DNA from: an uncultured archaeon
GTDB taxonomy: Archaea; Asgardarchaeota; Thorarchaeia; Thorarchaeales; Thorarchaeaceae
Length of the DNA stretch: 64,000 nucleotides
Assembly (NCBI GenBank): GCA_964558645.1
Contig: CAZLEV010000002.1
Location: 192,001 to 256,000, forward strand
Reading direction: 5' to 3'
Shown: positions 39,059-46,521 of the stretch, piece by piece
How positions within the stretch are numbered: the first letter of the stretch is position 1
Layout: every line of letters starts with the position of its first letter
Notes under the pieces: generated by a model
The model's input: the letters and a program-made list of their open reading frames with translations, nothing else
What the model was told of the DNA's origin: nothing
Databases searched by the model: none
Position numbers and translations under genes: made by a program

Positions 39059-40858
39059 TCAATGCTGGAAATAGGGGCTATCTATATCACTCTGGTCTTC
39101 GAATCCAACATCATCCAGCATGGAACCCATGGGTTGCGCACCACATGTCCACGATAAGCTGACAGTTCCATCTTCCTTGAAATCAAGTACTACATCCGGA
39201 AGGTCACCGAAGAGATTATGGTCGGCCTCCAGTACATCCTGATAGGCACCAGTCAAGCCAATCAGAAAATAGCCAACCTCGGCAGGGTCGGCCACAGGTA
39301 TGCCGGTGATCACTCTGTTCCTCGAACTCGTTATGAATCGATTGTCCTTGCTTAGTATCGGCTCATCAGGAGTGTGCCTAACGACAAAGGGAGAGATCTC
39401 CCCGTCACTGTCACAGGTCATGTCCACGAGCCGGACCGTTGCTGCAGGGTGTTTGTTGTGTCCAGAGAGAGGAATGACAGGAAAGTGCTGCTGAACAAAG
39501 ACATGGTCGAGACAGCTGTTGAAGACACTGAAATTACCTATCGAAATATAGTCCGGCTGCATGATCCAAGCGTAGAGATTCGCAGGCACGTGAATCCCTT
39601 TTTGCACAATACGTTTTCTAAGGATTGTCTTCAACAGAGTGACGAGTGTCTCGCGTTCAAGTAACTCGTCTAAGTCTCCCGTGGGCGTATCTGGTTCAAT
39701 GATCTCCCGCCAGATTGCATAGATAGCATCTTCACTCTGTGCTGCCTCAATCTTCTCTCTCCAACGAGCCAAGAGGGGATCTGACAAGTCAATCTCGGGC
39801 AGAAGACGGCGGGTCTCAATCACTTCCACAAGTATCATCGAACTCTGTGCAGTGATGGCTCTCCCCGCCTCTGTCATGATGTCCGGGTGATCTTCTGCAC
39901 CCTTCCGCTCACAGACATCCTGGATGGCTCTTAGAACCGTATTGAAATATACTGAAATGGGGTCCTTCGTAAAGAGACTCTCGTAATCAACCGGGATACC
40001 ACCACCCAAGTCTATGGTATCGAGCGCCCTGTAGCCCCTCTCCTTGAGAGAGAAGAATACTTCGGCCATATATTTTCCAAAATCGTGCATGTTTGTCTCA
40101 AGGTTGGTCAGCTGCGAGCCAATGTGAGCGTGGATTGTCCGAACATCGTCAAGGAGGCTGTTCTCTCTGAGGATATCTGTCACTTCGAATAAATCCTGAA
40201 CTGAGAGTCCGAACTTTGAATACCTACCGCCTGAGTGATGCCAGTGGCCGCTGGACTTGACGTATGGTTTGACTCTAAGGGCCAAATCGATATCACCGGG
40301 TTCGAAGAAATCAACCGCCAGATGCACTTCAGGAATGCTTTCGAGACAGACAAGTACATTGTGTCCAGCTTCAGATGCCTTCTTGGAGATGGTGAAGTAG
40401 TCTCTGTCTTTAACCCCGTTGCAGAAAATCAACCGATTCTTGTCTTCGCCGATAGCCCTCACGACCAAGAGCATTTCAGTCTTCGAGCCTGCTTCCAAGC
40501 CGTATCTGATGTCTGAGTTCAAGATGGTCCTGATGCAATCTACCTGCTGGTTAACCTTCACTGGGTAGAGAGGTTTGTACTCACCCTTGTACCCCTCTCT
40601 CAATCTATAGGACTCGAAGGCGTTGTTTAGTCTTCGAATCTTCATTGTTATGAATTGAGGAACACGGAGGGTGAAGGTAGAGGTATACCCCACTTCGGAG
40701 GAGTACTTACGGCGGACACGTTCTATCAAGTCTTGAAAAGGGAAGAGCCGGTCATCGAACTTGAGGCAGAGATTCCCGTCGGAATTGATGTCGAGGAAAT
40801 CCAAGTCACCACGGCCAACACCATGTATGAACTTGGCGTCCTCAACAGACCACATCAT
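39059..40858 (-). CDS. speA: PLP-dependent biosynthetic arginine decarboxylase-like protein (SpeA type)
   Basis: YPVKVNQ (PLP Lys), GLEAGSK, SKFGL, HIGSQ, DLGGG, EAGRA, DMTCDSDG, GAYQ...HNLFG. Confidence 0.88.
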   Translation of the reverse strand: MMWSVEDAKFIHGVGRGDLDFLDINSDGNLCLKFDDRLFPFQDLIERVRRKYSSEVGYTSTFTLRVPQFITMKIRRLNNAFESYRLREGYKGEYKPLYPVKVNQQVDCIRTILNSDIRYGLEAGSKTEMLLVVRAIGEDKNRLIFCNGVKDRDYFTISKKASEAGHNVLVCLESIPEVHLAVDFFEPGDIDLALRVKPYVKSSGHWHHSGGRYSKFGLSVQDLFEVTDILRENSLLDDVRTIHAHIGSQLTNLETNMHDFGKYMAEVFFSLKERGYRALDTIDLGGGIPVDYESLFTKDPISVYFNTVLRAIQDVCERKGAEDHPDIMTEAGRAITAQSSMILVEVIETRRLLPEIDLSDPLLARWREKIEAAQSEDAIYAIWREIIEPDTPTGDLDELLERETLVTLLKTILRKRIVQKGIHVPANLYAWIMQPDYISIGNFSVFNSCLDHVFVQQHFPVIPLSGHNKHPAATVRLVDMTCDSDGEISPFVVRHTPDEPILSKDNRFITSSRNRVITGIPVADPAEVGYFLIGLTGAYQDVLEADHNLFGDLPDVVLDFKEDGTVSLSWTCGAQPMGSMLDDVGFEDQSDIDSPYFQH

Positions 40859-45060: not shown

Positions 45061-46521
45061 CTAACTCCCTTGCTCACTCAACAATTTGATAATCTCATCA
45101 ACTACTCTTTCAAGCTCTTCCTTTGACTCGAAAGCGAAGGATTTCGTGTCAATGAACTCGCCTGCAATCTGCCCTTTGCCACGCAGCAGAATAAGCGCTC
45201 TACGTATGGTCGCTGCGTCGAGCTCATGGTCTACATCAGGATCCTGTAGTGCGGCCTTCATATCAAGGAGGTCGCCGAACTCGATCTTGTTACCCGAAAC
45301 CACACTGGATAGTAATTTCCTTGCATCACGTTTTGACATCGACGGGGTGACCAAAGCGCCCCTCAAGCCAGTGAACACGAAAGTTCTACCATCGTCTTCA
45401 AAGTGACCAGATATCATCTCACGTCTAACCATCTCCTGCAGCTGACGGCGTAGGTTGTAGACAGCGGGACGGGGAAGTGATCGCCTGATGACTCTGTCAA
45501 GCTCCCTCAAAGTGATGCGGGGATTTAGTGATGTCACAGACAGTATGGTCTCACTGATGAATTCATCAATCTGCTGTGGCTGTAATGCATCCAGTATAGC
45601 CCCACAACTCGCACAGCTCGGCGTTTCTGGCGACACTGGGGCACCACAATGACCGCATCGAATAGCCCTCCGATAGACAGTTTCCTTCGTAGAAGATATC
45701 TCCTCGATGACTCGACGAGTGAGTGAAGACATCGCATTGCCTTTGACACGATATATCTCTAGGGCAGGAAGCCGTGTTCCGATAGCCAAGTAAAGGATGT
45801 CACTACGTGGGTGCCGATCTGCGTCAATGGCAAATGGGCGCTCTGAAAGATCCAATTCCTGTACCAGACCCCCACCCATATCCCAAATCCTCAGAGTACT
45901 CGACTTGTCCCCTGTGGCAAACAGTTTGTCGTTCTCCAAGTTCAGGACTGTACCTACTCGTATCTTCGAAGGAACCGTGAACTGTTTCAACAAGTAGCCA
46001 GCTGCAGATAGGATGCTGATATTGCCGCTGCGCTCCATCACAACTATCTCATATTCCGGATCATCCGTGATGTTCTCTAATCTGACAGAAACAACGGGTG
46101 ACGGAAACGATCGTGTAAACAGCTTGATGTCATCGTTCCACAAGGACACGGTATTATCGCGCATGGCAGCTGCAAACTCGTCCGCATAGTCGCCATCAAT
46201 ATCGGCCGCATCACAGGTTATGACCGGACTAGACTTTGCTATATGGTAGATAATCTGCCCTTTGTTGCCAATGACTATAACACAGTCCTTCGTCCCTGCA
46301 ACAATGTCGTCATAACCGTCAGCATCGATATCACCGATGGCTACGGTTCTAACCTTGGAGGTCCATTTTCGAGAACTTGTTTCTTTCCCGGCAGGAGAGA
46401 ATACTTTGAGTTTCTCGTCGTAGTCGATAGTGTATATCTCGACGCCCCTCTTTGTGGTTCTGACAAAGATGTCGTATATCAGGGACTCTGTATTCCTTAT
46501 TGATGTACGACTAATCTCCAT
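45061..46521 (-). CDS. FG-GAP-type beta-propeller + zinc ribbon + tandem PCI-like winged helices
   Basis: DIDADG, DIDGD, NITDD blade loops; CGHCG...CASCG; EMVRREMISGHF and LLRGKGQIAGEF; ATG 46521 (track TTG 46602). Confidence 0.78.
   Translation of the reverse strand: MEISRTSIRNTESLIYDIFVRTTKRGVEIYTIDYDEKLKVFSPAGKETSSRKWTSKVRTVAIGDIDADGYDDIVAGTKDCVIVIGNKGQIIYHIAKSSPVITCDAADIDGDYADEFAAAMRDNTVSLWNDDIKLFTRSFPSPVVSVRLENITDDPEYEIVVMERSGNISILSAAGYLLKQFTVPSKIRVGTVLNLENDKLFATGDKSSTLRIWDMGGGLVQELDLSERPFAIDADRHPRSDILYLAIGTRLPALEIYRVKGNAMSSLTRRVIEEISSTKETVYRRAIRCGHCGAPVSPETPSCASCGAILDALQPQQIDEFISETILSVTSLNPRITLRELDRVIRRSLPRPAVYNLRRQLQEMVRREMISGHFEDDGRTFVFTGLRGALVTPSMSKRDARKLLSSVVSGNKIEFGDLLDMKAALQDPDVDHELDAATIRRALILLRGKGQIAGEFIDTKSFAFESKEELERVVDEIIKLLSEQGS

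Follow-up and report, generated by a model that had tools for sequence, protein, structure and literature searches.

Among the closest described counterparts of the system reported here are the dCache_1 sensors PctA, Mlp24, TlpQ and McpU, which belong to the same fold family and have the same layout, i.e., a transmembrane segment (TM), a dCache domain, a second TM and a HAMP domain. The amino-acid motif of dCache_1 reads Y121...R126-x-W128-Y129...Y144...D173 in PctA, with R126 holding the carboxylate of the ligand and the Tyr and Asp residues holding its amino group (PMC8915833), and the bacterial dCache proteins TlpQ and McpU bind agmatine/putrescine in the nM to µM range in a strongly acidic pocket (PMC6234866). 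The amine-sensor motif dCache_1AM, which comprises an upstream insertion with the pair R103/D133, was found by Cerna-Vargas et al. (2023) in one archaeal phylum only, Halobacteriota. The eukaryotic proteins alpha2delta and CACHD1 combine dCache_1 with a VWA domain of the type that carries a metal ion-dependent adhesion site (MIDAS), the VWA being inserted within the Cache domain and extracellular (PMC8915833). Here we describe a four-gene operon that encodes two dCache receptors together with a beta-propeller protein and an arginine decarboxylase (ADC). It lies in a 64,000-nt stretch (hereafter, the window) of a Thorarchaeota metagenome-assembled genome that is 92.8% complete (contig CAZLEV010000002.1, positions 192,001 to 256,000). 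Unlike PctA, Mlp24, TlpQ and McpU, the Asgard receptors have as their output either TPR repeats and a vWA domain or nothing at all, and not an MCP, kinase, cyclase or phosphatase.

The operon occupies positions 39059-46521 of the window as four co-directional open reading frames (ORFs) on the minus strand, which is the strand of all operon features given below. Read directly from the sequence, the junction between genes 1 and 2 is TAG-ACAT-ATG, a 4-nt spacer provided that gene 2 starts at ATG 45056, the start we adopted because the orthologue alignments begin there. Genes 2 and 3 are separated by 14 nt between TAA and ATG, including the sequence GAGGAGG, and the stop codon of gene 3 and the start codon of gene 4 share ATGA, an overlap that suggests coupled translation. 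An initial annotation of the window, made from its letters without database searches, had listed these 4-bp, 14-bp and ATGA junctions between four co-directional genes and had noted that no histidine kinase, MCP, cyclase or response regulator was present. Both statements hold for the four genes: Pfam and NCBIfam detected no kinase (HisKA/HATPase), MCP, cyclase, GGDEF/EAL, PP2C or response-regulator domain in any of the four proteins.

Gene 2 (42312..45056) encodes the longer of the two receptors, a 914-aa protein that, per Pfam and motif positions, runs TM1-dCache_1-TM2-HAMP-like-TPR-vWA. Its dCache_1 match scores 68.8 bits (cut-off 45) and its TPR_12 match 57.4 bits, and both of its VWA matches (VWA_2 at 49.8 bits, VWA at 42.3) lie above the cut-off. 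The TPR region covers residues ~480-690 (43008..43640; TPR_12, TPR_1 and TPR_2), and the vWA domain follows at 42447..42902, with the MIDAS motif DKSGS at 42867-42893, the MIDAS Thr within 42654-42683 and the Asp within 42570-42599. The site is complete (D731-x-S733-x-S735, T802 and D830), and its residues are invariant across eight Asgard and eukaryotic sequences (alignment A3). The dCache, TPR and intact-MIDAS vWA portions of the architecture first proposed for this gene therefore stand. The HAMP portion is seen by Pfam in orthologues only, at 30.8 and 32.2 bits (cut-off 25) at the aligned position, while no Pfam HAMP match was detected at E <= 0.1 in the long receptor of the window itself. 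Long-receptor orthologues were found in 118 of 400 Asgard genomes. The combination of dCache_1 with a MIDAS-type VWA recalls alpha2delta and CACHD1; unlike in those proteins, the Asgard VWA is C-terminal, placed after TM2, HAMP and the TPRs, and is predicted to be cytoplasmic.

Gene 3 (40855..42297) encodes a 480-aa paralogue of the long receptor with the order TM1-dCache_1-TM2-HAMP and an acidic tail, DEAEEEE. The two proteins are 25-27% identical across the sensor region; dCache_1 is matched at 64.9 bits (cut-off 45) and HAMP at 24.4 (cut-off 25), and the protein terminates a few residues past the HAMP domain. Two paralogous Cache receptors, the second of them stopping right after HAMP, had been recognized in the initial annotation, and we concur. 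The Cache region of the short receptor also matches alpha2delta-1 at E ~1e-6. Most short receptors finish in a short acidic stretch directly after HAMP, and we considered this stretch as a candidate ligand of the MIDAS; the feature is not general, as the short receptors of families f14, f9 and f27 end in basic residues, and the candidate was dropped. A second receptor pair in genome G100, far from the ADC, includes a 544-aa short receptor (L066:6063-7697) that has no stop after HAMP and carries a Cys-rich, zinc-finger-like tail (CxxC...CxxC...CxxC), which may be a fusion clue linking a zinc module to the short receptor.

The pockets of the two sensors were read from alignments to the amino-acid sensor 3c8c and to orthologues. 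In the long receptor, the pocket motif is YDPNSEEWY (44376..44402), with Glu at the position of PctA Arg126, and the pocket residues as a whole are Y-E-W-Y-Y-D; in the short receptor, the motif is WYPTLDDWY (41632-41658) and the residues are W-D-W-Y-Y-D. Both pockets thus keep the aromatic and Asp residues for the amino group of a ligand, and the Arg that binds the carboxylate in dCache_1AA amino-acid sensors is Glu in one and Asp in the other. This Arg is absent from all ADC-linked long and short receptors examined, which come from five families and mostly have Glu or Asp in its place. The sequences that keep it are the two f26 receptors, a second Heimdall copy located far from the ADC, two unlabelled sequences and the two eukaryotic homologues discussed below. 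Since the amino-group residues are retained and the Arg has given way to an acidic or polar side chain, we predict that the ligand is an amine, decarboxylated and cationic, of which agmatine and putrescine are examples; a cationic, carboxylate-free amine is the most economical prediction for the ADC-linked Cache pockets. The amine ligand suggested in the initial annotation is, in this light, plausible. The acidic pocket resembles that of TlpQ and McpU, a resemblance drawn by analogy, given that neither protein was among the sequence matches at E <= 1.

Gene 4 (39059..40858; 599 aa) encodes a pyridoxal phosphate (PLP)-dependent ADC of the SpeA type, as judged from NCBIfam and from alignment to E. 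coli SpeA (3nzq). The alignment runs end to end with E 2e-63, and the motifs YPVKVNQ, HAHIGSQ, GGGIPVDY, EAGRA, CDSDG, GAYQ and HNLFGD, which include the PLP-binding Lys and the Gly-rich loop, are identical in the two proteins. Pfam Orn_Arg_deC_N is matched at 104 bits. Unlike E. coli SpeA, the protein scores below equivalog level in NCBIfam (350.6 against a cut-off of 369 for biosynthetic arginine decarboxylase, and 323.1 against 624.1 for a second model), is encoded within a receptor operon, and belongs to an archaeal lineage in which PdaD is the usual enzyme. The intact catalytic motifs and the full-length alignment agree with the SpeA-like assignment made at the outset, and the equivalog scores fall short of it.

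Other genes of agmatine and polyamine metabolism were sought in the genome, at its stated completeness. No pyruvoyl-dependent arginine decarboxylase (PdaD), no enzyme of the AdoMetDC family (SpeD), a family that includes neofunctionalised arginine decarboxylases (PMC10407285), and no spermidine synthase (SpeE) was found in it; an agmatinase-family gene and TiaS are present. Among 24 genomes of the same family, PdaD was found in none, yet it occurs in most of the other Asgard families sampled, and a SpeA-type enzyme is present in 22 of the 24 (75 of 85 in a larger sample). On these sequence data, gene 4 is the lineage's only recognisable source of agmatine and not a dedicated signal synthase; as the only recognisable arginine decarboxylase of its lineage, it would not be an extra enzyme kept for signalling. 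Elsewhere, genome G051 of family f5 has two tandem SpeA-type genes (L046:12643-17354), one with a C-terminal extension of ~290 aa, and no receptors nearby.

The remaining gene, gene 1 (45061..46521), encodes a 486-aa cytoplasmic protein in which neither a signal peptide nor a TM segment was found, and which consists of a six-bladed beta-propeller of FG-GAP/BBS2 type, a zinc ribbon and two winged helices (Pfam, AlphaFold2 (AF2) models, orthologue alignment and Foldseek). The propeller (45736..46521) contains two loops of the DxDxDGxxD type (46306-46335 and 46177-46215), and its AF2 model (pLDDT 82.6) has 24 strands in residues 2-260, i.e., six blades. BBS2_Mid is matched at 29.8 bits (cut-off 27), and FG-GAP (20.0 against 22.1 bits) and FG-GAP_3 (26.2 against 26.9) fall just under their cut-offs. 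The AF2 models then place one helix, a CxxC...CxxC ribbon and the two winged helices. The ribbon (CGHCGA...CASCGA, 45598..45660) is matched by Zn_ribbon_3 and Zn_Ribbon_1, and its four Cys are invariant in an alignment of 22 orthologues. The winged helices (45067..45591) were assigned from the C-terminal AF2 model (pLDDT 77) and conservation; the first spans 45361-45591 and carries a basic motif, ELDRxxRRxLPxPxxYNLRRxxQ, that is invariant among orthologues, and the second spans 45067-45333. In one genome (G012, L023), the gene 1 orthologue is interrupted by an in-frame TAA.

The C-terminal part of this protein had initially been labelled PCI, and from the combination of TPR, vWA and PCI modules an analogy to the proteasome regulatory particle had been drawn. 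We reject the PCI/proteasome-lid reading. Pfam gave no PCI match at E <= 0.1, the AF2 models have no helical solenoid N-terminal to the first winged helix, which is the defining part of a PCI domain, and no specific PCI match emerged from structure comparison. There, the winged helices matched Stn1, ORC, cullin WHB, UFL1, ESCRT-II, MarR-type and PCI proteins at VIA Z <= 7.5, with the PCI winged helices at 5.7-6.5 tied with those of Stn1, ORC, cullin WHB, UFL1 and MarR-type proteins, and Foldseek returned no match to them at E <= 0.001 (best E-value 0.017). Because so many classes match equally, we regard these as generic winged helices, and with the PCI label gone the proteasome analogy is left without a basis.

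The propeller itself invites comparison with two eukaryotic systems. The first is the BBSome with its subunits BBS2, BBS7 and BBS9, together with ITFG2: beyond the BBS2_Mid match above the gathering cut-off, the partner propellers of other Asgard loci show weak Pfam matches to BBS7, PTHB1 and Itfg2, the matches by Foldseek include BBS1, BBS9 and the BBSome, and the Atlas clusters nearest gene 1 carry BBS2_Mid, Beta-prop_BBS7 and FG-GAP_3. Some of the closest clusters in that search are of eukaryotic BBS2 (0.77-0.78), a proximity we treat as a lead. The likeness is, however, confined to the propeller, as the other BBS2 domains are absent from gene 1, which has the zinc ribbon and winged helices instead. 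By Foldseek, the propeller resembles G-beta, WDR5, BBS1 and BBS9 about equally, and the E-values for BBS proteins do not improve on those for WD40 propellers in general. The second is the integrin alpha/beta head: in the operon, the gene for an FG-GAP-like propeller, with its DxDxDGxxD loops, is next to the gene for a MIDAS-bearing vWA domain, and the two co-occur across Asgard lineages. In contrast to integrins, the Asgard propeller and vWA are both predicted to be cytoplasmic, and with six blades and FG-GAP scores under the Pfam cut-offs the propeller is not of the seven-bladed integrin type.

We compared the neighbourhood of these genes across Asgard archaea. A full-length gene 1 orthologue was found in 18 of the 24 same-family genomes, and at all 18 loci the four-gene order is identical, at ~40% identity, although three of them end early at contig ends. 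The order propeller, long receptor, short receptor, ADC was found at 43 of 77 named species loci in Thorarchaeota, the rest being mostly on truncated contigs. Outside this group, the Heimdall-labelled family f14 and family f20 have the long receptor, short receptor and ADC in co-directional order, and in f5 and f18 the receptor pair is divergent from the SpeA-type gene. Heimdallarchaeota SZ_4_bin2.246 (f18) and Ca. Hodarchaeum mangrovi share one arrangement, with the ADC on the minus strand, the two receptors on the plus strand and the propeller gene convergent with them, past the short receptor. Sigynarchaeum, Loki CR_4, f26 and f9 have no ADC at the locus and carry the long receptor first, then the short receptor and then the propeller.

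The propeller partners of f26 and f9 end in a CxxC...CxxC ribbon (by direct reading, and for f9 also by Pfam zinc-ribbon models), and the two winged helices are found on the propeller protein of Thorarchaeota only. Family f9 also has a Cache-less TM-HAMP-TPR-vWA variant encoded two genes away from a propeller-Zn-ribbon gene. The conserved core thus consists of the two receptors, long and short, and the propeller-Zn-ribbon protein. It is the HAMP-TPR-vWA arm that persistently accompanies the propeller, and the ADC is a lineage-restricted addition to the core in several families. The genes are syntenic in many genomes, and the linkage of receptors to ADC outlasts rearrangement in other classes; the neighbourhood conservation proposed earlier as a check is borne out. 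Two side observations concern these loci. In f9, the Cache-less module (G281, L068:7302-12238; G241, L070:4348-10492) comprises an unknown 240-aa protein, the TM-HAMP-TPR-vWA protein of ~578 aa, a 150-aa membrane protein and the propeller-Zn-ribbon protein of ~610 aa, with a TrkA_N protein following it in L070 only. In genome G039 of family f14, a 115-aa RING-finger ORF (L041:12958-13305) lies 170 nt 5' of the long receptor, at the position that the propeller-Zn-winged-helix gene takes in Thorarchaeota.

The reading that we favour, and to which we give an even chance, is that of a sensor for agmatine- or putrescine-type amines whose vWA/TPR output acts via the propeller protein to adjust the supply of agmatine. 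The operon would then be one transcription unit that couples a kinase-free transmembrane sensing module to the synthesis of agmatine. The long and short receptors would be anchored in the membrane, Cache domains outward, and, presumably as a heterodimer, form an outward-facing amine sensor from both chains. The amine signal would travel via TM2 and HAMP into the TPR-vWA arm in the cytoplasm, a part of the long chain only, and the MIDAS and TPRs would bind or release the cytoplasmic propeller-Zn-ribbon protein. Such a vWA-propeller contact would be an integrin-like pairing, with a six-bladed propeller and on the cytoplasmic side of the membrane. Nucleic acid or another protein could be the target of the two extra winged helices of the Thorarchaeota protein. 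The result may be a feedback that matches the cell's own ADC output to the external amine supply, with either sign and at the level of transcription or of enzyme activity. Agmatine is used by TiaS to modify tRNA-Ile2, and the cell would need it for this TiaS-dependent step and, via the agmatinase-family enzyme, for putrescine.

Several observations weigh against this reading. The ADC is solitary in f12 and in genomes G051, G052, G013, G393 and G006. In G003 (L039 ~10030-10460), gene 1 and the short receptor are reduced to short remnants beside an intact ADC, which points to a deletion that removed the receptors and spared the ADC. A search for a propeller gene beside the f5, f14 and f20 loci found none, and the winged helices of gene 1 lack a specific match. 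In some long receptors of f14, f20 and f12, the Arg position is taken by Q, S, N, F or W, and the pocket is partly degraded. The genomes of f9 and f27 contain no SpeA-type gene, yet their receptors are acidic at this position too; the substitution is thus not confined to ADC-linked loci, even if the ligand argument still needs it. Finally, the Cache domains face outward, and the product of the cytoplasmic ADC would have to be exported before the cell could sense it.

Much of this evidence can be read the other way, with the ADC as a passenger: the receptors and propeller would be a general-purpose Asgard signalling module whose output is something else, and the housekeeping ADC would be an uncoupled neighbour. 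The three-part module without an ADC in f9, f26, f27 and Loki CR_4 fits this reading, as do the solitary ADCs, the ADC that outlived its receptors in G003 and the acidic pockets in genomes without a SpeA-type gene. We nevertheless consider it unlikely, given that receptors and ADC are adjacent in five families from at least two Asgard classes and in three arrangements (co-directional with the ADC downstream, divergent, and with the propeller variably placed on one side or the other), that the ATGA overlap in the window suggests coupled translation of short receptor and ADC, and that no ADC-linked receptor has an Arg-type pocket.

A different mechanism would place the ADC itself under direct control. 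Here the TPR-vWA arm would bind the enzyme at the membrane and either switch its activity or couple it to export, and released agmatine would be sensed as a signal of density or of neighbours. Both TPR and vWA modules bind proteins, the pocket is of the amine type, and the tight translational coupling is between the short receptor and the ADC itself, all of which suit such an autocrine circuit. It is nonetheless distinctly unlikely in our view: the operon encodes no exporter, the partner that co-occurs across all lineages is the propeller protein and not the ADC, and no N- or C-terminal extension or other terminal feature was seen that distinguishes receptor-linked from solitary ADCs. A produce-and-sense circuit had been put forward in the initial annotation. 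Of this idea, an amine ligand is plausible and the receptor-ADC linkage is conserved; the ADC is no dedicated signal synthase. Given that the ADC is the sole recognisable one and that the receptor/propeller core also occurs without it, agmatine homeostasis as set out above fits at least as well. That the vWA-TPR membrane proteins are instead structural, or are substrates or adaptors of a chaperone system in the manner of bacterial BatA and BatB, vWA-TPR proteins that work with MoxR ATPases, is highly improbable, for although a membrane-anchored vWA and TPR without a classical output domain recalls Bat-type proteins, neither a MoxR nor a DUF58 gene is present within or next to the operon, and a complete dCache sensor whose ligand pocket is conserved, joined to a HAMP transmitter, bears the hallmarks of a receptor.

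A putative TATA box, TTTATATG, lies at 46545..46552, 24-31 nt 5' of ATG 46521, and a matching CTTATATG element was found 5' of gene 1 in ~45 Thorarchaeota loci. By sequence, the TTTATATG box is the probable operon promoter, and the mRNA would be nearly leaderless; the conserved TATA box, the gene 1 start and the spacing argue for a single promoter and a single transcript. The start of gene 1 was set at ATG 46521 from the position of the TATA box and the orthologue alignment. An alternative start at TTG 46602 was rejected, because it would place the TATA box inside the coding sequence and because the homologues start with the Met encoded at 46521. No conserved operator-like palindrome was apparent by eye 5' of gene 1, where only the TATA box and a ribosome-binding-like AGGTG were seen and no formal motif search was made. 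In many Thorarchaeota loci, this region resembles a conserved divergent coding sequence.

The operon is flanked by unrelated DNA-repair genes, MGMT and HhH-GPD. DNA-repair genes around it in the window are MGMT (38667-39044), an HhH-GPD glycosylase (46633-47499) and an Fpg/Nei-type glycosylase (52411-53067). Elsewhere in the window, on the plus strand, are a 369-aa small GTPase of the Ras/Roc/Arf family with a C-terminal extension of ~190 aa (35717-36826), typical for Asgard genomes, and a very large ORF of 1912 aa (29329-35067).

Two proteins from eukaryotic datasets are homologous to the long receptor. A Heimdall long receptor aligns over its full length with a Trimastix protein (P0040, EukProt) at 28% identity across 933 columns (E 3e-98), and with a protein of the chytrid Phlyctochytrium bullatum (P0025) at E 4e-76, matches about as strong as that between the Thor and Heimdall long receptors (E 8e-91). 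Both eukaryotic proteins have the order TM-dCache-TM-linker-TPR-VWA and keep the amino-acid-type Arg. In a quick maximum-likelihood tree, both have long branches and fall outside the whole set of Asgard sequences sampled (SH-aLRT 96), which argues against recent contamination from a sampled lineage and leaves their ancestry unsettled. A further profile search, swamped by TPR proteins, added only the unlabelled P0201 and P0205, and an Atlas search with the long receptor gave unlabelled clusters. In a published survey, every eukaryotic dCache_1 protein has a VWA inserted within the Cache domain, and fungi have none (PMC8915833); the architecture of the Trimastix and chytrid proteins falls outside this description. 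A bolder proposal would be that the long receptor founds a kinase-free receptor class common to Asgard archaea and eukaryotes, in which a cytoplasmic MIDAS-vWA/TPR arm engages a BBS2/FG-GAP-type propeller, integrin-like but inside the membrane; the Trimastix and chytrid proteins would then be Asgard-derived and not alpha2delta-derived, and the Thor/Heimdall/Hod module would have been re-tuned from amino acids to amines for agmatine homeostasis. We put this forward tentatively; it will probably not hold, though a new receptor class common to both groups has a realistic chance.

We found no description of the module in the literature searched. The dCache-HAMP receptor type is known; its TPR-vWA/propeller output is unprecedented. 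Asgard archaea are the closest archaeal relatives of eukaryotes, and almost nothing is known of how they sense their environment. Widespread among them is a bacterial-type sensor without the usual outputs, ending in protein-binding domains better known in eukaryotic complexes. Its link to the sole recognisable ADC offers a testable ligand, agmatine or polyamines, and a physiological read-out, and its full-length eukaryotic homologues make it a new candidate receptor family common to Asgard archaea and eukaryotes.

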